Source: an uncultured virus (IMG/VR IMGVR_UViG_3300037440_000397)
Taxonomy: Duplodnaviria; Heunggongvirae; Uroviricota; Caudoviricetes
Virus record (IMG/VR): IMGVR_UViG_3300037440_000397
Location: 1-64,000 of that record
Direction: 5' to 3' (one strand)
DNA: 64,000 bases
Below are positions 2,826 through 55,849 of the stretch, in pieces. The notes under the pieces are model-generated. The model had not been told where the DNA came from. It did no database searches and saw nothing but the letters and a program-made list of their open reading frames with translations. Made by a program: the position numbers and the translations under genes. Each line of letters begins with the position of its first letter. Position 1 is the stretch's first letter.

Positions 2826-3085
2826 GCGACGGCCTCGGCTTCCTGGTAGCGGCGGTGGTGGACGGCACGCAGCGGCATGGGGTGGCCGCTGGCGGTGCGG
2901 CAAGCAATGCCGGGGGTGACTTGGCATTGGGGGCAGCAGGCGGTTTCGCGGGCCCATTGGGCGGCGCGGCGGGGGTGCGGCTGGTTGAGGGGGCGGCCGA
3001 GGAGGGTTTTGCAGGGTTGGCCGGTGGGGGCGTGGCAGCCGGGGCAGGGGATGGTGTGGGCGTGGTGGGTGGTGTGGGTGGTCAT
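2822..3085 (-). CDS. Double zinc-finger protein
   Basis: Two CPxC-x7-C...H motifs. Confidence 0.7.
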   Translation of the reverse strand: MTTHTTHHAHTIPCPGCHAPTGQPCKTLLGRPLNQPHPRRAAQWARETACCPQCQVTPGIACRTASGHPMPLRAVHHRRYQEAEAVA

Positions 3086-3258
3086 TCGGGTTCTCCGGTC
3101 TGCTGGTCGCGGGCGGCGGCGGTGTGGGCGGTGTGTGCGGTTTTGCGTGCATCGTGGGATGCGATGGCGAGTTTCCGGCCGCGGGGGCTGGTGCAACGCT
3201 GGCCGGGCGGGGCTTGGCACCAGGGGCAGCGGATGGACCACTCGGGGAGCTGGGTCAC
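3082..3258 (-). CDS. 58-aa zinc-finger protein (below ORF-track cutoff)
   Basis: VTQLPEWSIRCPWCQAPPGQRC...SHDAR; 4-nt overlaps on both sides. Confidence 0.65.
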   Translation of the reverse strand: MTQLPEWSIRCPWCQAPPGQRCTSPRGRKLAIASHDARKTAHTAHTAAARDQQTGEPE

Positions 3259-3986
3259 GACGTTTCGGTCTCGCGGATCTGGTCCTGGAACTCCTGAAGC
3301 TGAGCGCGCTCCTCGGGGGGAAGCTGGCTGAGGTAGGCGGCTGCGGCTTCCTTACGGGCGGCGATCTGGTTGGTGTCTTCGCGAGGGAGGTCGTGGGCGT
3401 CGCGGGCTGCGCGGCGGCGGACGGCATGCGGGACGGTGCGCGGGCTGCCGTTGCTGCGGCAGTGCCTGCCGAGGGGGGCGAGGCAGGCGGGGCATGCCAC
3501 GGTGAGGGGGCCGACGCGTACCGGCCGGCGGCTGCCGCTCGCATCGTCGTCGGGTACGTCGTGGCCGACTGCGGCAAGTTCACGGAGCAGCCGCGGGTCG
3601 GGAGTACCTGGGCCGAGGGCGCGGAGTCCGGTGTCCGGTCCGATGCGGCCGTCAGCAAGGGCAGCGGTACGGGCGCGGAGCCGGGCCAGGTACTGCTCCG
3701 GAGTCTCGTCCGGGTCGCCGTCGTAGCGGAGGTTGGCTACGCGTTCGCGGCGGGCCCGCTTGGCGATGTCGATCAAATCGACTGCGGTTGCCCGGTAGCG
3801 GTCCTGCGGCTGGCGGCGGGCCATCTCCTGGTAGAAGGCGGTGAGTGCGGTTTCGGCGTCGGCGCGGGTGAGTCCTGCGGCGGACAGGTCGGCGTGCCAG
3901 GCGAGGATGTCGGCTCGTCCGACGGTGCGTTGGTCGCGGGCGGCGGCGAGGCCGAGGAGTGTTGAGGCGTCTTCGTAGGTGATCAC
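3255..3986 (-). CDS. Putative helicase-loader-like replication protein with C-terminal zinc finger
   Basis: Directly follows rep; AAARDQRTVG...W N-terminus; CPAC...C...H. Confidence 0.6.
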   Translation of the reverse strand: MITYEDASTLLGLAAARDQRTVGRADILAWHADLSAAGLTRADAETALTAFYQEMARRQPQDRYRATAVDLIDIAKRARRERVANLRYDGDPDETPEQYLARLRARTAALADGRIGPDTGLRALGPGTPDPRLLRELAAVGHDVPDDDASGSRRPVRVGPLTVACPACLAPLGRHCRSNGSPRTVPHAVRRRAARDAHDLPREDTNQIAARKEAAAAYLSQLPPEERAQLQEFQDQIRETETS

Positions 3987-20489: not shown

Positions 20490-21383
20490 ATGACCACCGA
20501 CGACATGCGCAGACTCCTCGACTCCTGGACCCTCCACCTACGCGCCGAACGCAAAAGCCCACAAACCGTGAAGACGTACACCGACGGCATCAAACGCTTC
20601 ATCGCATGGTGCGAGCGCACCGACCGCCAGCCTGACCTCACACGAGCCGTAGTGAACGCCTTCGTCGCAGACATCCTCGACGACGGCGCAGAGGCTGCCA
20701 CAGCCCGCTCCCGACAGTTGTCCCTCCGCCGGTTCTCCGCATGGCTGGCCGAGGAGGGAGAGCTCGACAGCGACCCGCTGGTGGGCCTGAAGCCGCCCAA
20801 GCTCGATAGCAAAATTATCCCTGAACTATCCGACGACCAGCTCCGCGCGTTGATCAAGGCGTGCGCCGGCAAGGACTTCTGGGAACGCCGCGACGAGGCA
20901 ATCATCCGGCTGATGATCGAGACCGGGGCGAGGATCGGTGAAGTCGTCGCCATGGAAGTGGACGACATCGACCTGCCCGCCGGCACTGTGATCGTGCGCC
21001 GCGGCAAGGGAGGCAAGGGCCGCAGGGTGCCTATCGGGCCGCAGACGTCTCGCGCGGTTGACCGGTATCTGCGGTTGCGGCGGGCTCACAGGCTTTCCGG
21101 GACGCCGGATCTGTGGCTCGGTGACCGGGGTAAGACGATCGGATATTCGGGTCTCTACGACAGTCTGGTGCGGCGTGCGAGGATCGCGGGTGTTGGGGAC
21201 TTCCATCCGCATGTGTTGCGGCATACGGCGGCTGGGAGGTGGCTTCAGCGGGGTGGGTCGGAGGGGGGGTTGATGGCGGTGGCTGGGTGGTCGCGGCGGG
21301 ACATGATTGATCGGTATACGCGGGCGACGGCGGCGAAGCGTGCTGCTGATGAGGCGCGGGGGCTGAATCTGGGTGATCTTTGA
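20490..21383 (+). CDS. int: Tyrosine integrase (297 aa, no obvious arm-binding domain)
   Basis: TGARIGE, RGKGGK, HVLRH, GW, DRY catalytic residues. Confidence 0.95.
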   Translation: MTTDDMRRLLDSWTLHLRAERKSPQTVKTYTDGIKRFIAWCERTDRQPDLTRAVVNAFVADILDDGAEAATARSRQLSLRRFSAWLAEEGELDSDPLVGLKPPKLDSKIIPELSDDQLRALIKACAGKDFWERRDEAIIRLMIETGARIGEVVAMEVDDIDLPAGTVIVRRGKGGKGRRVPIGPQTSRAVDRYLRLRRAHRLSGTPDLWLGDRGKTIGYSGLYDSLVRRARIAGVGDFHPHVLRHTAAGRWLQRGGSEGGLMAVAGWSRRDMIDRYTRATAAKRAADEARGLNLGDL

Positions 21384-44094: not shown

Positions 44095-47000
44095 TCACCT
44101 CCCTCCCGGGTGGACGCGACGCGACAGCATCCGCATCACAATCCGTACCGCATCACGCTCGGTCTGCTCCTGCGAGCGGCCCCACGCAACCGTCGGCCGA
44201 CCAGCCGCCACCAGCGCCTGCGGCTCACCCGACGCGACACGGGCCCGCATCTTCGGCACCGGGAACCCCGGCACATTCACCGCCAGCAACCCCACCAGCC
44301 GAAGCTCCCCGCCGATCCGCCGCCAGTCCCCACTGACCTGGCCCGCGGCCTGAAGCTCGTATACCTTCAACGGATCAGCGCCCGGACGGACCGCGCCCGC
44401 GACCCAGATCCCGTGCGCGTCGTTACCCACCGCGACATCGGCGACCGCAGCACCCGTGTTGTCGTAGTGCTCCGCCGCCGGAGACGCACCCATGTGCAGC
44501 GGCGCATGCCCGGTACCGACGGTGATCTGACCGACCGCCACCCGGGACCCGTCGTCGCACTTCACCTCACCCGTCCGGTAGTACGGGTGCGCGTCTTCGT
44601 GCGGCGGCTGCACACACACACCCTCCTGCCCGATGTGGCAGGAACCCCACTGCGCAGCATGCCCGTAGATCCGGCCGTCGTCCGTGATCGTGATCGGTGT
44701 CGGCAGGCTGAGCTTCGGATCAGAGAACCAGGCGGCTTGCGGTTGCCGTACTGCTGCTGAAGCAGACATGGAGCCGCCCATGCCGTAGTCGCACCCGTCT
44801 TCTTCCGCAGCTGACATCAGGCTGCCAGCGGACACGCCAAGGGCTCGAGCGAAACCCGCCAACCGGTCCTCGGGCGGGCAGTTGATGTCTCCGGCGATGA
44901 TCTCATTGACGGTGCCGGTGCTGATTCCAGCCGCGTTCGCCATGTCGGCGATGATGTCGGCCCGGCTCGTGTCCTCATCCATCTTCCGTTCGATGGCGCG
45001 GTTCAGTGCTCCTGCCAGCGAAGAGCCGAATGCGTGACGAGAGTTTCCAGCGAGAGTTCCGGCCCTCATGTTCAGCTCGGGCGGCTCCCGGTCGGCGTCC
45101 CGCAGATGCCCGGCGAGGTGGTTGTAGACGCCTTGGAAGTCGGCCCGCGGGATCGTCGTGCCGCCGCGGCCACCGTTCAGGATGCCGATCCCCGTAGAGC
45201 AGGCCGTCAGGTTCGCCGCCCCCGGGCTGCCGTCCGCGCCGACCTCGTGATGAATGAACCGGGCGGCATCCTTGACGAGTTCACCGTCTTCGATGCGGTC
45301 GTCATCAATCCACGCGTACGCGTTCCGCGCGGTCGCCACCGTCATCGGCGACGGAAGACGCGCCTCGTTGGCCGGGCCGTCCCAGTCGCCTTCGGAGGTT
45401 GCGGTGTCGTGCGTGCCGACCGCGCCAAACTTCTCTGCCACTGCGGCTTCGCCGACCGGCTGCCCGCCGGCCACCACAGCGCCCTCCTCGTCGAGGAGCG
45501 CGACATAGGCTTCGGCGAACGCGGGGATGTCGACGAGGGTGGCGCCGCGGATGCGGCCGCCGTGGAAAATCATCTTCTCCGGCTGCGCGAACAGCATCTC
45601 GAGCAGGTCGCCCTCGTCGCCGTCTTCCATGCCGGCGTTGACGTCGTCGGGCCACACGAACTCGACGTCGGCGTCCGCGATGGAGTCGGCGTCGATGCTG
45701 ACGCCGCGGAGGAACTCGCCCTTCAACTTGTCGTAGGCCCGTTGTCCGTTGTCGTCGGACAGGTCGAGAACCCCGGCGCCCATGATCTTGTTGTCGTCGC
45801 GCCAGATGCGGTCGATGCGGCCGACGTTGACAGCCTTGGTGCGCGCCTCCCCACCGTGGGAGTCTTCGATGTTCCACCGCAGCGGTATCGGGAGGTCGGC
45901 CCAGGTGAGCGCTCCGGGTGCGAATTCGCGGCCGTCGCCGGTGACGATGCCTTCGACGGCGAGGACGCCTTCCCATGAGGGGGTCTCGCCTGTGTAGCCG
46001 ATCCTGCGGACGTCGTCTTCGTCGTCGCGCTGTGGCCGGTTGCCTTCTTCGGCGAGCAGGGTGCGGGCCTGGTCCTCGGCGTCGGTTTCGGTTGCGTGGC
46101 AGCCCATGAGTTCGTCGGTGGCTTCTTTTACGACGGCCCACGGCGTATCGGCACCGCAGTCCGGGTGGTCTTGCACGATGCTGTACGGCACGCTGCCGCC
46201 TCCTTGCTCGTGGTGTGTCGGCGGCATTGTGTCCGCGGAAGCCGCCAAGATCATTCCGGCGGCTGCTGCCTGCTCGTCTCCCTGCGGCCAGACGGTGACC
46301 AACGTGCCCCTGCAGCGGGAGCCGCCGAGGCAACCCGTGTAGCCGCCCGACGGGTAGGCGGCGCGGGCGTCGGGCAGGGTGGTGTAGCGGGTGCCGTCGA
46401 TGTCGCGACATGGGGAACATGAGTTGCGGTCGAGGATCTCGCTGGCCGTGTACTCGGCAGGCGGTGCGACTGCGAGGACGGCCATGCGGCCCTCGTTCTG
46501 CGCCGCCGACATGGCGGCGCCGACCTGCTCCTCAACTGCCGCACCCGACAGGGACGCGAGGTGCTCATCCACCTGCGCCGCAACCTGCTCCGCCGACCCC
46601 GAACCCCACACCCGCATCGCCTGACGGACCGCGGACTGCACCAGCCCCACACCCAGGTAGCGGGCTGTCGTACGGCCGACTTGGCGGAGCCGGTCCCGGA
46701 TCGCCGCGGCGGTCAGCGCCTCATCGTCGAGGGACCATTCGGGAATGTCGACGCCCTGCGCTTCGGCCTCCGCCTGCTGCTGCTCGCCTGCCTCCCGCGC
46801 GTACGCGATCATGCGGGCGATGAGGAGGCGCGCCCCGTCCTCGGTGTCGACGGTCAGTCCGTCGAGCAGGTCCAAGTTGTCAGCCTCCGCCGCGGCTTGG
46901 ATGCTGGCGGTGATCTCGGCGCGCATCGCCTCCTGCACGCTGGCCCACGCCTCGACCGTGCCGTCTACGGCTTCGTGCCAGGCCTTGTCCATCTGCGTGA

Positions 47001-47811
47001 AGTCAGCGCGGGACGCGAGTTCGAGTTCGGTGGGCTGGCGGCGCAACGGACCGGCCGCCGCGGTTCGAGCGGTGGTTCGTGTGCGGCCGGTGACGCGGAC
47101 GGGGACACCGAGTTCGGCAGCGAGTCCTTCGGCGGCCGTGCACATCGCGTCCAAGAGCAAGGCGCCGCCGCGGTTGGTCTCCACCTCGACATGGACGACG
47201 TCCTCGTCCCACCTCGGGGTGAGGACGCGGGCGGAGGCGGTGACGTCGCCGCCGAGGGGGATGTCAGTGTGCTCCCCGGCGAACGCCACGCGGACGCGGT
47301 CGAAGGTGACCGACCCGAGGCGCTCCTCCAACGCGATGATGAGATCCAGCTCGTCGGAGTACGCGGCACAGATGCGCGGCTGCCAGGGCGTGTACTGGTC
47401 GGGAAGGTTCTCCGCGTCGAGGACGTTCGCCACCGAGTAACGGGCGGCGTCGTAGGCGTTCGCCAGTGCAGGTGCTACGGCCGGGCGGCCGTCGCCGCGA
47501 TCGTCGCCGACGGCCCACACCCACGACGGGGAGTCGCCGTCGGAGTTCCAGTGGTTCGCGCCGAAGATCCGCGCCTCGATGGGCTGCCCGATCCAGTTGG
47601 CGTAGTCGGCGACTTGGTCGATGAGAGCGCGCCGCTCTTCGTCGGTGAACACGCTGCCGTCGTCGCCGAGGAAGTACAGCGTGCAGTGCAGATCCTCGGC
47701 AGCCTCGCCGCCCTCGATCGCCAGCCGCGCCGCGTCCTCCGGCGTGGGCATCAGCGCAATCATCGCGCCAGAGGTGTGCGAGCCGTCAGCGGCGGCCGTG
47801 AGCGAACCCAT
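44095..47811 (-). CDS. Head morphogenesis polyprotein: 2H phosphoesterase-like, MuF-like, capsid maturation protease and HTH insert
   Basis: LHCTL; C..C...D G...CLGG.RCRG; EG..TGDGR, GVSID, TLVDIPAF; AGISTGTVNEII. Confidence 0.8.
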   Translation of the reverse strand: MGSLTAAADGSHTSGAMIALMPTPEDAARLAIEGGEAAEDLHCTLYFLGDDGSVFTDEERRALIDQVADYANWIGQPIEARIFGANHWNSDGDSPSWVWAVGDDRGDGRPAVAPALANAYDAARYSVANVLDAENLPDQYTPWQPRICAAYSDELDLIIALEERLGSVTFDRVRVAFAGEHTDIPLGGDVTASARVLTPRWDEDVVHVEVETNRGGALLLDAMCTAAEGLAAELGVPVRVTGRTRTTARTAAAGPLRRQPTELELASRADFTQMDKAWHEAVDGTVEAWASVQEAMRAEITASIQAAAEADNLDLLDGLTVDTEDGARLLIARMIAYAREAGEQQQAEAEAQGVDIPEWSLDDEALTAAAIRDRLRQVGRTTARYLGVGLVQSAVRQAMRVWGSGSAEQVAAQVDEHLASLSGAAVEEQVGAAMSAAQNEGRMAVLAVAPPAEYTASEILDRNSCSPCRDIDGTRYTTLPDARAAYPSGGYTGCLGGSRCRGTLVTVWPQGDEQAAAAGMILAASADTMPPTHHEQGGGSVPYSIVQDHPDCGADTPWAVVKEATDELMGCHATETDAEDQARTLLAEEGNRPQRDDEDDVRRIGYTGETPSWEGVLAVEGIVTGDGREFAPGALTWADLPIPLRWNIEDSHGGEARTKAVNVGRIDRIWRDDNKIMGAGVLDLSDDNGQRAYDKLKGEFLRGVSIDADSIADADVEFVWPDDVNAGMEDGDEGDLLEMLFAQPEKMIFHGGRIRGATLVDIPAFAEAYVALLDEEGAVVAGGQPVGEAAVAEKFGAVGTHDTATSEGDWDGPANEARLPSPMTVATARNAYAWIDDDRIEDGELVKDAARFIHHEVGADGSPGAANLTACSTGIGILNGGRGGTTIPRADFQGVYNHLAGHLRDADREPPELNMRAGTLAGNSRHAFGSSLAGALNRAIERKMDEDTSRADIIADMANAAGISTGTVNEIIAGDINCPPEDRLAGFARALGVSAGSLMSAAEEDGCDYGMGGSMSASAAVRQPQAAWFSDPKLSLPTPITITDDGRIYGHAAQWGSCHIGQEGVCVQPPHEDAHPYYRTGEVKCDDGSRVAVGQITVGTGHAPLHMGASPAAEHYDNTGAAVADVAVGNDAHGIWVAGAVRPGADPLKVYELQAAGQVSGDWRRIGGELRLVGLLAVNVPGFPVPKMRARVASGEPQALVAAGRPTVAWGRSQEQTERDAVRIVMRMLSRRVHPGGR

Positions 47812-49588
47812 TGGAACTCCGGTGGGAGACGGTGGTCAGAAACCCGGTCGTATCCAGATGCGGGGACAGCCGGCCGATCGTGAGCTGCCCGAACGCAGAC
47901 AGTCGCGCCTCGTACACGCCGGACGTGCCTGGTCTGGGCAGAGTCGGGAGCTTGACCGCGGCGTGTGTGAACGGGCAGGAGTAGGCGTGTGTTGAGCACA
48001 GTGCGGGGTGGAGGAGTTCGGGCGGCCGACCGGCGGCGAATCTGACGGCGTGTAGGGCTTTTGCTTGTTGGGCCATGCGTTCGTCGCGGGCGCGTGCTGC
48101 TTCGGCGCGCGCGGCTTCGGCGGGTGGTGGTTCGCTGGGTGTGTCGGGCGGTGTCCGGTCTTCTGGCTGATCCGTCTCCGGCTCGGTGGTCTGGCCGGGG
48201 CGCGCGGCGGCGACGGGTTGGATGGTGACTTGTTCGCCGGTGAGTTCGGTGATGGCGGATGGGGCTCCGGTGGGGAGGGTGTGGATGACGATCTTGAGGG
48301 CTTGTTCCTTCAGCTCGTCGTCGCTGGGTTTGTCGGCTTCGGTGAAGCCGGTTTCGCGGCGGAGTGCGTCGCCGTTGATTTCGAGGCGGTCGTAGAGCTG
48401 GATGGCGTCTTGGCTGCGGTCGGGGCGGAGGGTGAGTTCGGACATGTCGTACCAGACGACCCAGCTCGCCCAGTCTTCGACGCGGGAGGCTTGAAGCCGG
48501 GGCTGGAGGTAGCCGGTGGTGAGGGCTTGGGCGATGAGTTCGGCGTCGGGGGCGACGTTGACTTTCAGGTTGGTTTCGTCACTCAGCCAGCCGTTCCAAT
48601 GGTTCAAATCGGACATGCCGAGCAGCACTTCGGGTGGGATGTTGAGCTGCGAGGCGAGGCGTTTGATGGCGCTGTCGCGCTTCTCGATGATCTTGTCGTC
48701 GATGCGCAGCGTGAAGTCGAGGTGCTGGAACTTCCCGATCAGTTCTTCCGGCACCTTGATCGGGATTGGCACGATGGCTGCCGCTGTCCCTGGCGTACGG
48801 ATCGCCTCAGCAGCGAGCTCGATCCACTCGGCCACGAACGGGTCCGGCGCGTCAGCGAACTCTTCTCGCACCGGGAAGGTGGCCTCGGACGGAATGAACC
48901 ACACGCCAGCGCTGGCAAGTCGGCTGAGGTACTGGCTGATGATGTGCCGGTTCACCAACTCCAGCTCGCGCATGGTGGTGCGGGCCGCGCGGGCGGGGCT
49001 GTCGGCAACATGGTGGTAGCGCTTGTTGGGGCGCCATACCCGGATGGGGGCCATGGAGTCGGGGGCGAGGGGGCGCCAGTTGTAGCCGTCGCGGGGGTTG
49101 TTTTCGTCGATGACTTCGTAGTGGCCGCGTGCTGCGCGTACTTCGTCGATGGACCGGACAGCCCACTTCTCGATGCCGCCCACGTTTTCGACGATGACGT
49201 AGCCCTCACCGGGGACTGCGAGTTGGGTGCCGAGGCCGTTCATGATTTGGGCTTGTCCGGCGACGCCTCCGGCGAAGGTGGTCATCAGCTCGACGGCGGT
49301 GCCTGCTTCGGCGCGTACGGGTTCGTCGGCTCCGGGTTCGAGTTTCGCGGCGTAGAAGCGGATGCGGGAGAGCATGTTGGCTTCCCAGTCGGCGGCGTAT
49401 CGGAATTCGCCGAGGTCTGAGTAGTACTGCCAGGCTTCGTTTTGCCAGGTGTCGGGGGTGCGGATGAGTTCGGTGCGGGGGCTGGTGGTGGGGGTGGCGG
49501 CGGCCGTGAGCGCGGCGGGTTCTGGGCGTGGCGGGGGTGTGGGTGTGGGCATGACGCCACGGCGGGTGAAGGCGTGATACCAGGCCAT
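47786..49588 (-). CDS. Portal protein
   Basis: WQNEAW...GEFRY, RVWRP, ADSP.RA, SRLASAG, LG...NHW. Confidence 0.85.
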   Translation of the reverse strand: MAWYHAFTRRGVMPTPTPPPRPEPAALTAAATPTTSPRTELIRTPDTWQNEAWQYYSDLGEFRYAADWEANMLSRIRFYAAKLEPGADEPVRAEAGTAVELMTTFAGGVAGQAQIMNGLGTQLAVPGEGYVIVENVGGIEKWAVRSIDEVRAARGHYEVIDENNPRDGYNWRPLAPDSMAPIRVWRPNKRYHHVADSPARAARTTMRELELVNRHIISQYLSRLASAGVWFIPSEATFPVREEFADAPDPFVAEWIELAAEAIRTPGTAAAIVPIPIKVPEELIGKFQHLDFTLRIDDKIIEKRDSAIKRLASQLNIPPEVLLGMSDLNHWNGWLSDETNLKVNVAPDAELIAQALTTGYLQPRLQASRVEDWASWVVWYDMSELTLRPDRSQDAIQLYDRLEINGDALRRETGFTEADKPSDDELKEQALKIVIHTLPTGAPSAITELTGEQVTIQPVAAARPGQTTEPETDQPEDRTPPDTPSEPPPAEAARAEAARARDERMAQQAKALHAVRFAAGRPPELLHPALCSTHAYSCPFTHAAVKLPTLPRPGTSGVYEARLSAFGQLTIGRLSPHLDTTGFLTTVSHRSSNGFAHGRR

Positions 49589-49670
49589 GTGCTGCTCCCG
49601 CGTTCCCTGGGGGTGGGTCTGCGGGTGACGGTAGGCACTAGCCGGGGAAGATCATTCCGGGGTGAATGCG

Positions 49671-49769
49671 GAATTGAATTAAGCGGACCGGTAAAACTAA
49701 TTGCCCTTTACTGGTTCGGGTTAATTAATTGCTGCGGCTTGCGCTTCAGGTCCCTGCATCTCTTACACT
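49671..49769 (+). promoter_or_regulatory. AT-rich divergent region with a likely sigma70 promoter for the RAMP operon
   Basis: TTGCGC (49739) and TACACT (49764), 19-bp spacer. Confidence 0.5.
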
Positions 49770-49828
49770 CACGTCACGGTTCGTGGCGCGGATGGCAGCA
49801 GGCACCCACAATTCACCTGGAGACACCC

Positions 49829-50464
49829 ATGGCTGACGCCACGATTGAGATCCACCAGATCGCCGCCGAGACCCTGCTCGTCCCCCTCGTCGGGACCACG
49901 CCGCTGATCGTTCACCGCTTCAGCGAGAAGGCGAAGCGGCAGATGCTCGACAACATGCAGGGCCGCAAGTCCCCGAAGCAGGCGAAGGACCCGCAGGCGG
50001 AGTACGAGGCCGCGTTCTACCGGCTCGGGGACGGCGGCTACGGCTTCCCCTCGCTGGCCTTCAAGGCGGCCACGGTCGGCGGTGCGCGGTTCTACTCGGG
50101 CGTGACGATGACGGCGCTCAAGCAGTTCATGTACCTGCGTGGCGAGGTCGGTGACGACGGGCGTGCGCTGACCCGTATCGAGGGCGAGCCCATCATGCGG
50201 GAGGACGTCGTCACGGTCGGTCGGAACGGCTCGGACCTGCGGTACCGGCCGCAGTTCTCGGAGTGGCGCGCCACGCTGGAAGTCACCTACGTGACGTCCG
50301 CGTTGACGCGTAACTCGGTGCTTTCCCTGATCGATGCCGGGGGTATGGGCGTCGGAGTCGGCGAGTGGCGCCCGGAGAAGGACGGCGACTTCGGTACGTA
50401 CCGTGTGGATCCGGCTCGTGAGATCGAGGTCGTGACGAGTGCGGGAGAGAAGGTGGCGGCATGA
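49829..50464 (+). CDS. Stand-alone Cas7/RAMP-like protein, 211 aa (Vipr-like)
   Basis: N-terminal strand LVGTTPLIVH, GFPSLAFKAA (RAMP PxxxxKG-like), C-terminal G-rich loop GGMGVGVGEWRPEKDGDFGTY; no other cas genes. Confidence 0.75.
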   Translation: MADATIEIHQIAAETLLVPLVGTTPLIVHRFSEKAKRQMLDNMQGRKSPKQAKDPQAEYEAAFYRLGDGGYGFPSLAFKAATVGGARFYSGVTMTALKQFMYLRGEVGDDGRALTRIEGEPIMREDVVTVGRNGSDLRYRPQFSEWRATLEVTYVTSALTRNSVLSLIDAGGMGVGVGEWRPEKDGDFGTYRVDPAREIEVVTSAGEKVAA

Positions 50465-50886
50465 CAGCGGATCTTCGAGGCCAGTTGCAGGCTGTCTATG
50501 ACCAACACTCGGAGCTGACGCCGGATCTGGTGGTGGACGTGGCGCGCGATCCGGAGCACCCGTTGCACTCGCGGTTCGAGTGGGATGACTCGGTGGCGGG
50601 TGAGGCGTGGCGGCGTCAGCAGGCGCACGACTTGATCCGCAAGGTGAAGGTCGTCTACCGCGAGGCGGATGAGTCGGGTCCGGAGAAGTCCGTCCGCGCT
50701 TTTCATGCCGTGCGGTCCGATAAGGGCCATGTCTATGAGCCGGTGGAGAAGGTCGTCGCTGATGACTTCACTCGTCGGCTTCTGCTGAACGACATGGAGC
50801 GGGAGTGGAAGGCATTGCATCAGCGGTATCAGGAGTTCGAGGAGTTCTTGTCGATGGTGCGGCGGGACGTCAGCGACGCGGCCTGA
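50461..50886 (+). CDS. Accessory protein coupled to the RAMP gene
   Basis: ATGA overlap; LTPDLVV..AR...HPLH..FEWDD motif; array starts 4 nt after the stop. Confidence 0.8.
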   Translation: MTADLRGQLQAVYDQHSELTPDLVVDVARDPEHPLHSRFEWDDSVAGEAWRRQQAHDLIRKVKVVYREADESGPEKSVRAFHAVRSDKGHVYEPVEKVVADDFTRRLLLNDMEREWKALHQRYQEFEEFLSMVRRDVSDAA

Positions 50887-50889
50887 TTC

Positions 50890-51834
50890 GGCAGGCTTGG
50901 CAGGTCTTGGCTGGTCACGTCCCAGTCCGGCATCGCGCGGCTAGGTTCGGCAGGCGAGTCATGGCGTGGCTTGGTGGAGCAACGCGGGTTAAGGCGCGGC
51001 GCGGCATGGCAGGCGGGGTCTGGTTGGGCCCGTCCTGGTGAGGCGAGTCGAGGCGCGGCAGGCTTGGCCCGGCACGGTCCGGCGGGGAAGGCATCGCTAG
51101 GCAGGGCCGGGCTTGGCAGGCTCGGCATGGCTAGTAGTGGCCCGTTCGGTCTTGGTAGGGCTCGGCGTGGATCGGCACGGCAGGCTCGGTGCGGCGGGGC
51201 TTGTCTCGGCGGAGTCTGGCATCGCTTGGTGAGGCAGGGCTCGGCAGGCTCGGCGCGGCTGGTCCTGGCCGGGCTTGGGTCGGCAAGACTTGTCTCGGCT
51301 TGGCAGGGCAGGCGTGGTCCGGCACGTCGTGGCACGTCGGAGTGCGGTGCGTTTGGGTAGGGCTCGGCAGGCTCGGCGGGGTCAGGCAGTGCTGGTTGTG
51401 GCTAGTCACGGCTTGGCAACGCGTGGAATGGCAGGCTCGGCAGCGCAGGGCGCGGCACGGCAGAGCGAGGCGCCACGTGGCATGGCACGGCAGGCCAGGC
51501 ATCGCAGGGCACGGTCGGGCAGGGCCGATCGCGGCATGGTTGGGCTCGGCAGTCATGGTGTGGATAGGCGAGGCATCGCCAGGCACGGCACGGCAGGCGC
51601 GGCAGGCGCGGCCAGGTCGGGCGCGGCATGGTCGGCAGGGCAGGCGGGGCATCGCGGGGTCCGGCGTGGCTTAGCAGGGCCCGGCCAGGCGTGGTCAGGC
51701 GTGGCAGGCACGGCACGGCAACGCAAGGCGTGGCTCGTCCTGGCCCGGCGGGGCAACGCAGGGCAGGCGTGGCTGGTTCTGGTGCGGCGTGTCTGGGCGC
51801 AGTGCGGCGGGGCGCGGACTGGCATGGCAGGCGA
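50890..51834 (+). repeat. Non-coding GGCA-(GGY-NN)n array, 17 units, candidate guide-RNA array
   Basis: GGCA delimiters at 50890, 50949, 51008, 51057, 51115, 51179, 51243, 51307, 51366, 51430, 51489, 51548, 51592, 51601, 51639, 51703, 51762, 51826; mostly 11-12 pentamers per unit. Confidence 0.92.
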
Positions 51835-51843
51835 GAGAACACC

Positions 51844-51881
51844 GAGGGCCGTTCGCGTGACGCACACCGCGAACGGCCCTC
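51844..51881. terminator. 14-bp perfect hairpin closing the array
   Basis: GAGGGCCGTTCGCG / CGCGAACGGCCCTC. Confidence 0.8.
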
Positions 51882-51919
51882 AACCTCACCCATCCCTGCA
51901 AGCCAGATGCTACGGGCTG

Positions 51920-52387
51920 CTACGCCCACTCCTGTCCGGCGAGCAACGCGCCCACGGCCCACGTCGCCAACCACACCAGCACCGGCATCGCCAAACCCGC
52001 CACCGCCCACACCCCGCCCGTCACCACAAGCGCGATCCAACCGCTCGCACACCAAGGACACGACAGCAACTCGGCCAACCAGAACGGCGACCACCTGCGC
52101 CGGTGCACGTAACGCTCCAGCACGCCGTCGTTTTCCTGTACGGAACCGAGGGCCGCGTACGCACGCCGCACCCCCAAGGGCATCTCCTGCTCACCCTCAG
52201 GACGACCCAACGGCGACCAACCCTCGTAGGCGTAGTACGCCCCACGCTCAGGCTCCGTCAGCGCCCGCCAGCCACCCGTCAGCCGGTCACGCAGCCACAG
52301 CACCGGCGGAAACGTATCCGCCACCAGCAACCGCGTAAGCCGGTACACCGCGAGCGACATCACGAGCAGCAGCAGCCAAGTCTCCAT
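51920..52387 (-). CDS. DUF1360-like membrane protein
   Basis: YRLTRLLVAD...LLSCPWCASGW. Confidence 0.8.
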   Translation of the reverse strand: METWLLLLVMSLAVYRLTRLLVADTFPPVLWLRDRLTGGWRALTEPERGAYYAYEGWSPLGRPEGEQEMPLGVRRAYAALGSVQENDGVLERYVHRRRWSPFWLAELLSCPWCASGWIALVVTGGVWAVAGLAMPVLVWLATWAVGALLAGQEWA

Positions 52388-52644
52388 CACAGAGCCGCAG
52401 GAGTCGTCTCACCCTGGAGCGACTTATACACCGACACCGTGTACGAGGTACCGCTGTTGTACGAGGACTTGAACGACACGAGCGCGCTATCCAGGTACGT
52501 CAGCAGCTCCTCCATCTCCGCCTCGTTCTCGCCGTTGATGATGGCGCCCTCGATGGAAAGCTTCGCTCCTCCCGTACTGCTGATCAGGTAGTGGACGGTC
52601 AGCGGGTTGTAACCGCTAGTCGGAAACGCCACGAGAACTCCCAT
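52387..52644 (-). CDS. Hypothetical protein
   Basis: TGATG coupling to the next gene. Confidence 0.55.
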   Translation of the reverse strand: MGVLVAFPTSGYNPLTVHYLISSTGGAKLSIEGAIINGENEAEMEELLTYLDSALVSFKSSYNSGTSYTVSVYKSLQGETTPAAL

Positions 52645-53293
52645 TGATCCAGAACTGCTTTTGATGATTCGTCGGCACCCTCGTGTCCACATGCACAGGA
52701 ACCCCCGCGCCCATCAGGCGCCAGCAGAACGACAGGTCCTCACCCACCAGCGTCCCCGTACCGTCGACGATCGGATCAAACCACGCCCCGGCATCGACGC
52801 GTTCCAGCGCCGAACGGTGCACCAGCAGACACGCCGCCCCCGTACCCGCCACACGCACCAGCCCCGAAGGAACTGGCCTCTCCCACTCCGTGAACACCTT
52901 CGCGTCATCCACCCACCCGTGCAGCGTCGGAAACACCCGCGTCGTCAAGCCGCCCATGCCGTCCGGCTCTTCCTCCACCACCCCGTAGCAGAGGGCGCCT
53001 ACCACCGGCCGCTCCACGGGGTCAGCCGACGCGAGCAGACACGACAGAGCATCCGGCCGGAACCCCATGTCCGTGTCCACAAACCACAGCCACTCCCCGC
53101 CCCCAGCGAGGAACTCAGCCACGGCCTGGTTACGGACATGGGCAATCCCGATGGGCCGGTACCGCACCGGCATGACCCCGGAGATGACAGGCTCTTCAGC
53201 CCGCCGGTCGTGGCTCATGGCGAGGAGCAGCGACTGCATGAACGTGTGGGAGACCCAACCGGGATGGACGTAGCTGACGACGACTCCGCTCAT
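52616..53293 (-). CDS. GT-A fold glycosyltransferase
   Basis: RN..V..FL, FVDTD, GAACLL, GEDLSFC. Confidence 0.8.
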   Translation of the reverse strand: MSGVVVSYVHPGWVSHTFMQSLLLAMSHDRRAEEPVISGVMPVRYRPIGIAHVRNQAVAEFLAGGGEWLWFVDTDMGFRPDALSCLLASADPVERPVVGALCYGVVEEEPDGMGGLTTRVFPTLHGWVDDAKVFTEWERPVPSGLVRVAGTGAACLLVHRSALERVDAGAWFDPIVDGTGTLVGEDLSFCWRLMGAGVPVHVDTRVPTNHQKQFWINGSSRGVSD

Positions 53294-53298
53294 GCTGG

Positions 53299-55698
53299 TC
53301 ACCGTACGCGCCCGCCAACAATCTGCTTTCTGGCCAGATCGCCACCCAACGAACCCTGACCACGCGACGCCGTCCCCACCAACTTCAGATGCCACGCGGT
53401 CCACACGCAGTTGTGCACGAGGATTCCGTTCGCATAGAACTCGTGCTCACCCTCGATCGTCAGGTCGTACACGGGCTGCCTTGTTTCGAGCGCGGAGATG
53501 CGCTCCACACGAGTTCGAGCACGTCGCCGGAACCGGCTGATACTTGCTCTGCATGAACTCCCCTCCGCAGATCGGGCAGTTCGCCGGCTTGCGATACCGG
53601 TCAGCGCGGTCAGCAACACGACGCATGCACGCAGGAGAGCAGTACCGCGACTCCTTGAAGCCGCGCGTCTCGTAAGGCCTGTCACATGCTTGGCAGACCT
53701 CCGTGCGGTACTCCTGCTTGGCGTAGACATCCTTGCCGTGCTGTCGATGCCACTCGCGTCCCTCATCGCTGCTGTGCCACTCGGCAGCCATGGGGCGAAT
53801 GCTCGCCAGGTGCTCCAGCCATTCCGGGCTATCGAGGTCCCGTTCGTGTTCGTGGAGCAGGGCGTGCTCCTTGCGGGTGACGCACCGGAGGTTGCTGGAC
53901 TCGTTGTTGAGCGGGTTGAAGTCCACGTGGTGGATGACATGGCCGCGAGGAACTTCGTCAGCGCCGTTCGCAGCCTTCCAGACCTCGACGTGGAGCTGAC
54001 CCATCCTGGGTATGCGCCGGCTGTTCGCGTAGGCAGTGAAGTAGACCCTCGACGAGCGACTCTTCGACAGAGGGAAACGAGTGAACGTGATGCCGTTGAA
54101 AACGACCGACTCAGTCTGTTTGGGCATACGTCAATTCTATCGCCCCAGACCATCTCATCCACTCGAATGAACCCATTTTGTTCGGTCCATACCTTGTGAT
54201 CTGGAGTGGCCGTGAACGCCCCGGCCGTCGTCACGACACGCATCACCTCAGCGCTCGGACGCGTCATGCCAGACCACGTCACACGGCGCCACCCGGCCCG
54301 CGTCCACGCCAAGTCGTCCGTCGTCACCTCCTCAATCGGGATCTGCCCGCGACGGGTAGTGACCAGAGTCCCGGCAACAAGGCACGCGTCCAATCGGTCC
54401 GGTGACCAGCCCGCTTCCGGGTACCAGGTCGCCATCTGGTCCTCCAGCTTCGGGAACTCGCCGGCGTGGTGCCACCTGTTCTGTGCAGTGAGCGCCGCCA
54501 CGGGCTCCGCTCGCACCGCCTTGCCCCTGGTCGCGGTGACCGTGCGGATCGGAATGTCCACGCCGAGCGCGTCGGCCGCCGTGCGCAGCGTCGCGACGGC
54601 CATGTCCCCTCCAAAATTTCGCTCTACGACCAAGTCGTCTGCTTCCCAGTCGATCGCGGCCTGCACCGCGCGCCGGCCCCATCCGTCGGGCGACAACTGG
54701 CAGGACCGGTCGTCGAGGACGTAGCCGTGATGCTGCGGCCGGCCGCCATCCCCAGGAAGTACGAGGCCGGACTTCCCGACCACGACGATGCCCTGCTCCC
54801 CGGCGCCGCCGGACGGGTCGACGCCGACGGTGATTCGTACGAGGTCGGGTACGTCGCCGGGCCGTACGCGCGCTTCGTCGATCATCGTGTGTTGCCAGAG
54901 CGCGTTCTCGTCTTCTTCGATCAGCTCGCCGTACAGTTCCTGACGGCCGAGCTGCGTGCCCGCATACCGTTCCTCGAGGGAGGCTTTGATGTCCTCGGAG
55001 ATGTGCGGGTTGTCGCGGTAACTGGCGTGCGTCAGCATGACGTTCGCGACCGCTCCGGAGTGCAACTGCTTGATGAGCGGCTTCGGCTTCGGCGTGGTCG
55101 AGGCGACCCAGTGCGGGCGCGGGCCGACACGGAGGCCGAACCGCATGTGGTCCCAGGCGTCGTCGAGGTGCCGCCACGCCGCCAACTCCTCCAGCCACGC
55201 GAGGCATCGGTTACCGCCGGACCGTAGGCGGTCGACGTCGTTGGGTCCTTCCGTGCCGAAGATCTTCGCCTCGGATCCGTTGGGCCAGCGGACGATGGTG
55301 CTGCCCTTGACGGTGGCGAGCTTCGCTTCTGGGCTGTGGACGCTCAGCCCGGATGGCCCGGAGAAGCAGGAGGTGACGGCGTCGCCTTGGGTGGGGCCGA
55401 TGATGGCGATCCAGTGCGGGATCGGGCCGGGTAGGCAGGGCGGTCCGTGGACGTGCTGGTGGACGTACGCGGCACACGCGTCCGTCTTGCCCGCCATCCT
55501 GCCGGCGAGCAACAGCCACCCGTAGAAGTCGCCGGGCGGCGGCACCTGGTGGGGAAGCGGAGTCCACCTGGGTTTCGTCAGCGCGTCGTAGAGGCTGCCC
55601 ACGTCCGCAGCCGATCGGATAGCGGCCTCCGCGAATTCGGCGCGCGTGTTCCCCCGCTCCTGCTGGAGTGGGAAGAAGCTTTCCCAGTCGACGCCCAT
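53299..55698 (-). CDS. terL: Terminase large subunit with intein
   Basis: AGRMAGKT, WLEE, VGVDP, SPDRLDA interrupted by an intein. Confidence 0.9.
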   Translation of the reverse strand: MGVDWESFFPLQQERGNTRAEFAEAAIRSAADVGSLYDALTKPRWTPLPHQVPPPGDFYGWLLLAGRMAGKTDACAAYVHQHVHGPPCLPGPIPHWIAIIGPTQGDAVTSCFSGPSGLSVHSPEAKLATVKGSTIVRWPNGSEAKIFGTEGPNDVDRLRSGGNRCLAWLEELAAWRHLDDAWDHMRFGLRVGPRPHWVASTTPKPKPLIKQLHSGAVANVMLTHASYRDNPHISEDIKASLEERYAGTQLGRQELYGELIEEDENALWQHTMIDEARVRPGDVPDLVRITVGVDPSGGAGEQGIVVVGKSGLVLPGDGGRPQHHGYVLDDRSCQLSPDGWGRRAVQAAIDWEADDLVVERNFGGDMAVATLRTAADALGVDIPIRTVTATRGKAVRAEPVAALTAQNRWHHAGEFPKLEDQMATWYPEAGWSPDRLDACLVAGTLVTTRRGQIPIEEVTTDDLAWTRAGWRRVTWSGMTRPSAEVMRVVTTAGAFTATPDHKVWTEQNGFIRVDEMVWGDRIDVCPNRLSRSFSTASRSLVSLCRRVARRGSTSLPTRTAGAYPGWVSSTSRSGRLRTALTKFLAAMSSTTWTSTRSTTSPATSGASPARSTPCSTNTNGTSIARNGWSTWRAFAPWLPSGTAAMRDASGIDSTARMSTPSRSTARRSAKHVTGLTRRAASRSRGTALLRACVVLLTALTGIASRRTARSAEGSSCRASISRFRRRARTRVERISALETRQPVYDLTIEGEHEFYANGILVHNCVWTAWHLKLVGTASRGQGSLGGDLARKQIVGGRVR
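53410..54384 (-). mobile_element. Intein, 325 aa
   Basis: CLVAGTLV...TPDH...VYDLTIEGEHEFYANGILVHN, +1 residue Cys. Confidence 0.92.
53447..54127 (-). CDS. HNH endonuclease in an alternative frame within the intein
   Basis: LHVEVW...IHHVDFNPLNNESSNL...EHALLH plus two zinc fingers. Confidence 0.85.
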   Translation of the reverse strand: MPKQTESVVFNGITFTRFPLSKSRSSRVYFTAYANSRRIPRMGQLHVEVWKAANGADEVPRGHVIHHVDFNPLNNESSNLRCVTRKEHALLHEHERDLDSPEWLEHLASIRPMAAEWHSSDEGREWHRQHGKDVYAKQEYRTEVCQACDRPYETRGFKESRYCSPACMRRVADRADRYRKPANCPICGGEFMQSKYQPVPATCSNSCGAHLRARNKAARVRPDDRG

Positions 55699-55849
55699 GG
55701 TCGGATTGTGGCTGCTGTTCGAGGGTGTGCTGTCCGGAGCGGGGGTTGGTTGTTGTCTCGTACGCTGGCCGTGCGCCAGGGCCTCATGTCCCTCATTGAC
55801 CCGTGGGCGCCCCCGGGAAGAAGCGCAAAGGGGCGCCACTCAGCGGCGG

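Follow-up and report, generated by a model that had tools for sequence, protein, structure and literature searches.

A VIPR guide array, probably of the staggered kind, in a high-GC actinophage: one guide with an exact target in a sibling phage and another with a family-level match to tyrosine integrases

The DNA considered here, referred to as the window, comprises positions 1-64,000 of one uncultured-virus record 78,573 bp in length (IMG/VR IMGVR_UViG_3300037440_000397; 68% GC) and harbors a 945-nucleotide (nt) region of short G-rich repeats that follows two small genes. We are confident that this locus is a Viral Interference Programmable Repeat (VIPR) system, the repeats forming an array of about 17 guides. 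Two of the repeat units, 5 and 7, had been singled out in a first-pass annotation made from the letters of the sequence, which decoded them to motifs lying near the N-terminal end of integrases. The explanation that we favor as a whole, with a fair measure of confidence, is that units 5 and 7 are two of these VIPR guides and that unit 5 is probably aimed at the tyrosine integrase of a rival element.

VIPR has been described in three 2026 preprints (10.64898/2026.04.26.720920, PMC13142463; 10.64898/2026.04.26.720927; 10.64898/2026.10.15.759431), according to which it has so far been tested in two proteobacterial systems. As described in these preprints, Vipr is a minimal RAMP protein, one protomer of which is bound per repeat of the guide RNA (vrRNA), and the vrRNAs are built of a conserved GGY triplet alternating with a hypervariable dinucleotide (NN), over at least four and typically 9-16 repeats. 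Double-stranded DNA is read by the NN pairs with one base, mostly that at the wobble position, left out after each pair; transcription is silenced by binding to either strand, and the natural targets are rival phages and satellites. In PMC13142463 natural targets are called at a threshold of at least 80% NN identity, which no self-hit passes, and internal degeneracy of the vrRNAs is said to be frequent. For the phage SUSP1 it has been reported that vrRNA4 silences the excision recombinase of a satellite at invariant codon positions, immobilizing the satellite (10.64898/2026.10.15.759431).

The repeat structure of the array is far beyond chance. Within 50889-51833 base identity reaches 0.505 at a lag of 5 nt, versus 0.32 expected, and 0.499 at lags of 59 and 64 nt. 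Among 172 pentamers, G occupies the first position in 88% and the second in 85%, and a pyrimidine (C or T) occupies the third in 96%; positions 4-5 are close to uniform, with all 16 dinucleotides occurring. Strict GGY triplets make up 122 of the 172 pentamers, and the looser forms include GTC/GTT (12%) and CGC (6%). Segmentation by dynamic programming resolves the region into about 17 units, mostly of 11-12 pentamers each, closed by GGCA and then GGC, and the junction GGCAGGC is found 17 times with a spacing of mostly 59 or 64 nt. The array strand is G-rich, with a GC skew of about +0.26. Since no reading frame of the region shows the genome's coding signal in the G+C content of third codon positions (GC3), the region is taken to be non-coding; an Rfam scan of 49000-53000 at E<=1 returned no match.

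The pentamers of unit 5 are GGCTC GGCAT GGCTA GTAGT GGCCC GTTCG GTCTT GGTAG GGCTC GGCGT GGATC GGCAC, and the reverse complement of their NN pairs, GT GA AC GA CT AA CG GG AC TA AT GA, reads V[DE]T[DE]L[KN]RGT[Y/stop][IM][DE] on the target strand. For unit 7 the corresponding pairs are CT AA GA AA TT GA AA CG AG CA GC GA, read as L[KN][DE][KN][FL][DE][KN]R[RS][HQ]A[DE]. Strict GGY triplets account for 8 of the 12 pentamers in unit 5, 7 of 12 in unit 7 and 8 of 12 in unit 17, a guide discussed below. The coordinates and decoded strings given for units 5 and 7 in the first-pass annotation were reproduced exactly, with the minus-strand NN pairs as codon positions 1-2, and the decoding used there is the published one-nucleotide-skip rule (PMC13142463); the locus belongs to the already known VIPR kind.

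Several features by which a VIPR system is recognized are present: a Vipr homolog, a vrRNA with the GGY/NN pattern, a locus that combines vipr with a vap gene, a target read with one-nucleotide skips (that of unit 17) and the absence of self-targeting. The 211-amino-acid (aa) product of the first gene, searched as a single sequence without a profile, gave nothing at E<=0.001, and a profile built from 41 homologs matches the 'SUSP1 Vipr protein' (PDB 36pp) with E=2.2e-20 over 182 positions. In the profile the glycine-rich G-loop, GVG[DE]WRP, and a strand with YRPxFxxW align with SUSP1 Vipr, and D177, W178, R179, R138 and K33, which are described as RNA- and DNA-contact residues of that protein (10.64898/2026.04.26.720927), align with E179, W180, R181, R140 and K34. 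The AlphaFold2 model (mean predicted local distance difference test, pLDDT, 93.3) is Cas7-like in its predicted fold, the top Foldseek matches being Csm3/Cas7 proteins of CRISPR types III and VII (E 3e-5 to 1e-3); PADLOC and NCBIfam contain nothing matching the protein. For the second gene product, Vap, the model (pLDDT 93.8) gave weak winged-helix matches to BlaI/MecI, forkhead and MarR proteins, all with E>=0.3, and no Pfam, NCBIfam or PADLOC family was found.

The association of such arrays with Vipr extends beyond this phage. A search of viral contigs with a junction pattern defined on DNA only, GGCNNGGCNNGGCAGGCNNGGCNNGGC, returned at least 131 stretches, of which 80 loci, some of them on a common contig, were fetched with 2-kb flanks. 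Although found by the DNA pattern alone, 65 of these 80 encode Vipr and 57 Vap (54 encode both and 12 neither), and the usual order is vipr, vap and array on one strand. The Gordonia phages UmaThurman (3051-3550 of locus L001) and Ecliptus (3226-3575 of locus L002) have their GGYNN array placed between the two homologs, Vipr and Vap; that of UmaThurman overlaps a hypothetical gene of the annotation, gene 40, and this is thus probably no real gene. In cellular genomes 76 loci were found in several phyla, the closest Vipr proteins being those of Thermoactinospora rubra (84% identity) and Nonomuraea (77%), followed by Solirubrobacteraceae and Kribbellaceae.

Comparison with related viruses shows that the cassette, which has the order vipr, vap, array and is inserted between the DUF1360 and portal genes, is accessory. 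A relative that is 99.97% identical in the terminase region (L004) carries other DNA at the cassette site, and in three others (L006, L032 and L262) only about 80-125 nt separate DUF1360 from portal. At the same spot yet another relative (L008, 6150-7900) encodes a distant Vipr of 190-202 aa (pairwise E=5e-8) together with a different second gene, whose 170-aa product is helix-rich with a coiled-coil tail; there, short GGYNN arrays lie on both sides of the genes, and an inverted array spans a promoter-like AT-rich gap.

The code can be followed at work in unit 17. Guides were scanned and scored as in the preprint, with NN?NN? patterns on both strands, shuffled-guide nulls and 80% NN as the cut-off for a natural target; 14 guides were included, units 4, 13 and 14 being left out as too short or irregular. 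The full pattern of unit 17 has exactly one exact match (24/24) in the viral_contigs collection, at 611-645 of the VIPR-less relative L262, where it covers in frame the final codons of DUF1360 (VWLAVWAAGALI); the vrRNA carries the same NN pairs there as the coding strand. At the base composition of the phage, about 0.006 such matches per 100 Gb would be expected by chance. Eleven further related loci match at 20-22/24, also in the DUF1360 frame, and in 14 whole relatives (1.0 Mb) the guide scores 22/24, a value that none of 100 shuffles attained (null maximum 21); it is the sole exception there, the other 13 of the 14 guides having no match above shuffles in these relatives. The phage's own DUF1360 allele of the site, at 51942-51976 and about 100 nt from the array, scores 18/24 (75%), under the 80% cut-off, and with the array masked the best match in the own genome is 64-78% for each of the 14 guides, so that none reaches 80%. 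Inside near-identical flanks (99.97%), identity between the own DUF1360 gene and that of L004 drops to about 70%, which suggests that the VIPR weapon and its immunity allele are carried together.

Because the NN pairs fix the amino acid almost completely, decoded residue sets could be compared directly with integrase proteins, and three sets were used: 120 close homologs of the T. rubra integrase, 150 diverse family representatives (50% clusters) and 120 Microbacteriaceae-type proteins. The T. rubra query integrase (L327, 87-2430) adjoins a 332-aa open reading frame (ORF) that we take to encode a replication protein of the pSAM2 type, presumably as part of an element resembling an actinomycete integrative and conjugative element (AICE). 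Among the 150 representatives, unit 5 finds its best match in protein P0225 (VETELNRGTWRD), with 10 of 12 residues, at the very N-terminal motif that the first-pass annotation had named; shuffled guides average 6.3 residues with a maximum of 8, and 0 of 300 reach 10. Five further representatives match unit 5 at 8/12 at the same site, and the consensus of 12 such integrases is VETDLxRGTWxDP. Judging from sequence, the most likely target of unit 5 is the part of a tyrosine-integrase gene, very probably one outside the collections searched, in which this motif, VETDLxRGT(W/Y)IDP, of the N-terminal SAM-like domain is encoded.

A number of results weigh against this assignment. The 10/12 match to P0225 is counted in protein residues, and P0225 has W-R where the guide specifies Y-[IM]. 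In the other two protein sets unit 5 is less distinct: it scores 7/12 among the T. rubra homologs (KETEIRRGDWID, at the predicted place), which 25 of 200 shuffles equal (32 of 500 in a mean-profile test), and 7/12 among the Microbacteriaceae-type integrases, where 34 of 300 shuffles do as well. At the DNA level no exact copy of the full unit-5 pattern occurs in viral_contigs, genome_contigs or metagenome_contigs; a 9-unit core was absent from viral_contigs and a 10-unit core from metagenome_contigs. None of 401 Actinomycetes genomes had the pattern at <=3 mismatches (a control pattern likewise gave 0), and 0 of 15 related virus records matched; the best NN score in the 14 whole relatives, 17/24, is at or below the shuffle mean, and the 18/24 obtained in 109 integrase loci (357 kb) is matched by 35 of 200 shuffles. 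These figures have to be read with the knowledge that about 22-28 patterns were tested and that test windows were partly picked after seeing the data. The integrase motif read in unit 5 by the first-pass annotation is supported at the level of the protein family, and a gene with at least 80% NN identity to it was not found; likewise, the gapped-pattern search that had been proposed as a check gave, in the collections searched, no integrase gene at that level for unit 5 or for unit 7.

For unit 7 a weaker resemblance to the preceding F-x-x-K-x-x-A helix had been claimed, and of this only the position finds support. When the guide is anchored on the unit-5 site in 35 representatives, its mean score peaks at -17 residues, on the F..K..AE helix that was meant, and in 78 of the 120 Microbacteriaceae-type proteins, which are mutually related, the distance from the best unit-7 site to the best unit-5 site downstream of it is exactly 17 residues. 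The scores themselves equal those of shuffled guides. A peak as high as that at -17 is given by 295 of 500 shuffles, the 6/12 seen in Microbacteriaceae-type integrases is reached by 299 of 300, and the best match among the 150 representatives (8/12, as good in 21 of 300 shuffles) falls at another place in another protein. The full DNA pattern has no match in viral_contigs or in 5 relatives; the best NN scores are 17/24 in the 14 whole relatives, which does not exceed the shuffle mean, and 16/24 in the 109 integrase loci, where 200 of 200 shuffles are as good. The proposed footprint of unit 7 also overlaps that of unit 8. The likeness is compatible with a target in the same gene as that of unit 5, and equally with chance.

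Leads to integrase or excision genes also come from units 8, 9 and 10. Anchored in the same way on the unit-5 site (35 representatives, same strand sense), unit 9 peaks at +17 residues, with 2 of 500 shuffles as good, and unit 8 at -21 residues, with 3 of 500. Of the nine best DNA hits of unit 9 in the 109 integrase loci (17-18/24), five fall on the box that carries the catalytic tyrosine, LGH..T..Y.H, to which its decoded string, ITLNVYTHLWPE-like, bears a resemblance, and in 88 Microbacteriaceae-type proteins it scores 7/12 on that box (9 of 300 shuffles). Weighing against such a target, the best site of unit 9 is N-terminal in one integrase family and on the catalytic box in the other, and 12-residue degenerate matches must therefore be regarded as loose. 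Unit 10 reaches 19/22 NN (86%; 0 of 200 shuffles) at 470-501 of locus L341, at the 3' end of a 73-aa ORF beside a Streptomyces caeni integrase; that ORF has only sub-threshold Pfam matches of the helix-turn-helix (HTH)/AlpA type.

The first-pass annotation had gone further, proposing that several guides converge on the integrases of competing prophages or integrative and conjugative elements (ICEs), and suggesting as a check whether units 5, 7 and 9 hit the same integrase gene or family. Convergence finds some backing in units 8, 9 and 10, which point to integration or excision genes, and is left without a gene of at least 80% NN identity for units 5 and 7. As to a joint hit, single Microbacteriaceae-type proteins do match units 7, 5 and 9 together, at a weak level, for example 6, 6 and 7 of 12 residues, which is far from a real target. 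For unit 17, the sole guide with an exactly matched target, the gene concerned is DUF1360 of sibling phages and not an integrase. We infer that integrases of competing prophages or ICEs may be among the targets.

The rival that deserves most weight, though we consider it unlikely, is that units 5 and 7 are working guides whose targets are not integrases, and that the likeness of unit 5 to an integrase motif is due to chance or composition, since the guide decodes to a charged, degenerate 12-mer. It would account well for the failure of every DNA search to yield a gene with at least 80% NN identity to unit 5 or 7, for the lack of significance of unit 5 in the two close-homolog sets and in the mean-profile test, for the shuffle-like scores of unit 7 and for the fact that the only exact target found, that of unit 17, is the gene of a DUF1360 membrane protein. 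Chance alone, however, sits badly with a 10/12 match that beats all 300 shuffles by two residues at a site predicted beforehand, with the five more representatives that match at 8/12 at that site, and with the leads from units 8, 9 and 10, of the same strand sense, to integrase or excision genes. Decay offers a different account, in which units 5 and 7 are left over from past conflicts or serve as filler spacers that keep the register of the array; non-GGY triplets in 4 of 12 pentamers of unit 5 and 5 of 12 of unit 7, the want of a target, and the 13 of 14 guides without a hit above shuffles in relatives would all be in keeping with it. Yet unit 17, with its exact target, is equally degenerate (8/12 GGY), internal degeneracy belongs to the vrRNAs described in PMC13142463, and unit length and borders (59/64 nt) are kept across the array, so that this account appears improbable.

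It has also to be considered that the repeats might be no guide array at all and instead a protein-binding or packaging site on the DNA, an antisense C-rich tract for Rho loading or a field of G-quadruplexes, as a location between the terminase and portal genes and the G-rich strand (GC skew about +0.26) might indicate. Such roles would leave unexplained the Vipr homolog in 65 of the 80 pattern-found loci, the absence of the array from otherwise near-identical relatives, a GGY/NN code whose free NN pairs fit VIPR, and the exact, codon-phased, one-nucleotide-skip target of unit 17, and we give this explanation very little credence. Among specific candidates, wrapping sites for a ring protein or for the small terminase TerS, a pac site, an antisense Rho-loading tract and G-quadruplexes were dropped, the array being linked to a Vipr homolog.

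If units 5 and 7 are guides of which unit 5 is directed at an integrase, their action can be pictured by analogy with SUSP1. The array would be transcribed together with vipr and vap and processed into guides, in which each GGY triplet would be bound by one Vipr protomer; the free NN pairs would read double-stranded DNA with one base skipped each, a guide of 12 pentamers spanning 35 bp, usually in codon phase, and binding would silence transcription of the rival element. The gene targeted by unit 5 would belong to another element of the same host, be it a prophage, an AICE or a satellite, and unit 7, if directed at the same gene, would have its target 17 codons upstream, at the FxxKxxAE helix. 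A wider and more tentative reading, which we hold to be possible and yet doubtful, is that the array fights on two fronts: guides 5 and 9, and perhaps 7, 8 and 10, would immobilize an integrative element, a parasite or competitor of the phage, through its integrase N-terminal motif, its catalytic-tyrosine box and an Xis-like HTH gene, and guide 17 would silence the DUF1360-portal late operon of sibling phages. The locus would then be a strain-level 'greenbeard' weapon accompanied by its own immunity allele; the first front may be likened to SUSP1 immobilizing its satellite, and for the second, the cassette adjoins the gene that it targets and the carrier would have swapped in a resistant DUF1360 allele.

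Among the systems already described, the closest are the type II VIPR of Escherichia phage SUSP1 and of a Pseudomonas fulva prophage. They share with the present locus a homologous Vipr in which the [DE]-W-R of the G-loop and the arginine of the thumb YRP are aligned, a phage-borne vipr with one small accessory gene, GGY/NN guides with a codon-phased one-nucleotide skip, the lack of own-genome hits at or above 80% NN, and targets in rival phages, a recombinase having been a validated target in SUSP1. They differ in that SUSP1 vrRNAs end in a conserved 3' tail (pseudoknot), whereas the units here are tail-less and abut via GGCA followed directly by GGC, and in that SUSP1 produces four transcripts of about 100 nt, in contrast to the single array of about 17 guides downstream of both genes; the triplet is also looser here than in type II, as the GTC/GTT and CGC forms show. 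The locus is not filed under type II because it has neither a non-repeat tail nor an Rfam structure. The legend of Fig. S18 in PMC13142463 describes staggered arrays in which vrRNAs overlap by 1 nt, the end of one marking the start of the next; the 4-nt step between 5-nt repeats found here would give that overlap, and by its sequence the array fits the staggered kind of that legend.

With the Cas7 proteins of class 1 CRISPR (Csm3, Cmr4 and type VII Cas7), Vipr shares an RRM core, a glycine-rich loop and a thumb (Foldseek template-modeling score about 0.5), as well as the stoichiometry of one protomer per guide repeat. The period differs, being 6 nt with one base flipped in Cas7 and 5 nt with three bases sequestered in VIPR; moreover, unlike class 1 CRISPR, VIPR is phage-encoded and works without a repeat-spacer array, Cas6/Cas5/Cas10 or adaptation genes. 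Short RNA repeats in tandem, to which a protein multimer binds, are also known from the ToxI RNAs of type III toxin-antitoxin systems and from TRAP, whose triplets are spaced by 2-3 nt; in contrast to these, no ToxN-like or TRAP-like protein is known from the present locus, and its repeats carry hypervariable dinucleotides with a DNA target.

The carrier is a temperate, siphovirus-like, high-GC actinophage, in which family searches identified genes for TerL, portal, major capsid and tape measure proteins, RecT, WhiB, a methyltransferase and an integrase. The main features of the window are collected in Table 1.

Table 1. Coordinates of the VIPR cassette, of the repeat units discussed and of selected phage genes in the window
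Feature	Position	Strand	Remarks
XerC/D-like integrase	20490-21383	+	
Portal gene	47786-49588	-	start at 49588
Presumed cassette promoter	49589..49828	+	intergenic and AT-richer, with portal and vipr diverging from it; predicted from sequence
vipr	49829..50464	+	211 aa; RAMP/Cas7-like guide-binding protein; phrog_4652, E=5e-40
vap-like accessory gene	50461..50886	+	141 aa; phrog_15946, E=6.5e-33
vrRNA array, putatively staggered	50889..51833	+	about 17 units, each 59-64 nt long, with about 172 GGY/NN pentamers in all; 4-nt step at GGCA/GGC
Unit 5	51115..51178	+	GGCA at 51115-51118, then 12 pentamers at 51119-51178
Unit 7	51243..51306	+	12 pentamers at 51247-51306
Unit 8	51307-51365	+	target-strand reading [DE]L[HQ]AAPVTVGT
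Unit 9	51366..51429	+	decodes on the target strand to [IM]T[FL][KN]V[Y]T[HQ]L[CW]P[DE], resembling the integrase box with the catalytic tyrosine
Unit 10	51430-51488	+	
Unit 17	51762..51829	+	guide with exact natural target (DUF1360 gene of related phages)
Inverted repeat	51844..51881	.	14-bp perfect repeat, 10-nt loop, between array and convergent DUF1360 gene; likely terminator
Phage's own DUF1360 gene	51920..52390	-	Pfam DUF1360, E=7e-12
Large terminase with intein	53299-55839	-	Intein_splicing and Hint_2 matched after the N-terminal ATPase domain and before the protein end

The limits of the 211-aa and 141-aa genes were set by GC3 analysis together with the sequence, and GGAGACACCC precedes the vipr ATG at 49829; a 340-aa ORF listed from 49442 was rejected as an artefact arising from the missing stop. 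A megablast search of 48000-53000 against the phage collection matched nothing, and when prophage relatives were looked for through the portal protein, the best among 401 Actinomycetes genomes had 40% identity and none was found in the 5 Vipr-bearing genomes. Downstream of the portal gene, 44095-47811 on the minus strand encodes an unusual fusion, a 1238-aa protein for which PHROGs gave matches of four sorts: RNA-ligase-like, portal/MuF-like, protease-like and HTH. Beyond the window, at 69178-71253 on the minus strand, lies a 691-aa ORF that, judged by eye, we assume to be a DNA translocase of the FtsK/SpoIIIE (TraB-like) type.

Taken as a VIPR system, the locus places the same code in a high-GC actinophage, beyond the two proteobacterial systems, and in an array, probably staggered, whose length of about 17 guides is unusual. 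A further gain is an exact target of natural origin, verifiable by hand, beside the phage's own diverged allele. For annotation, the example of UmaThurman gene 40 indicates that small hypothetical genes may have been placed over such arrays in many actinophage annotations. If the integrase reading of units 5 and 9 is true, the silencing of recombinases at invariant codons would be a recurrent VIPR strategy across phyla and not a peculiarity of SUSP1.

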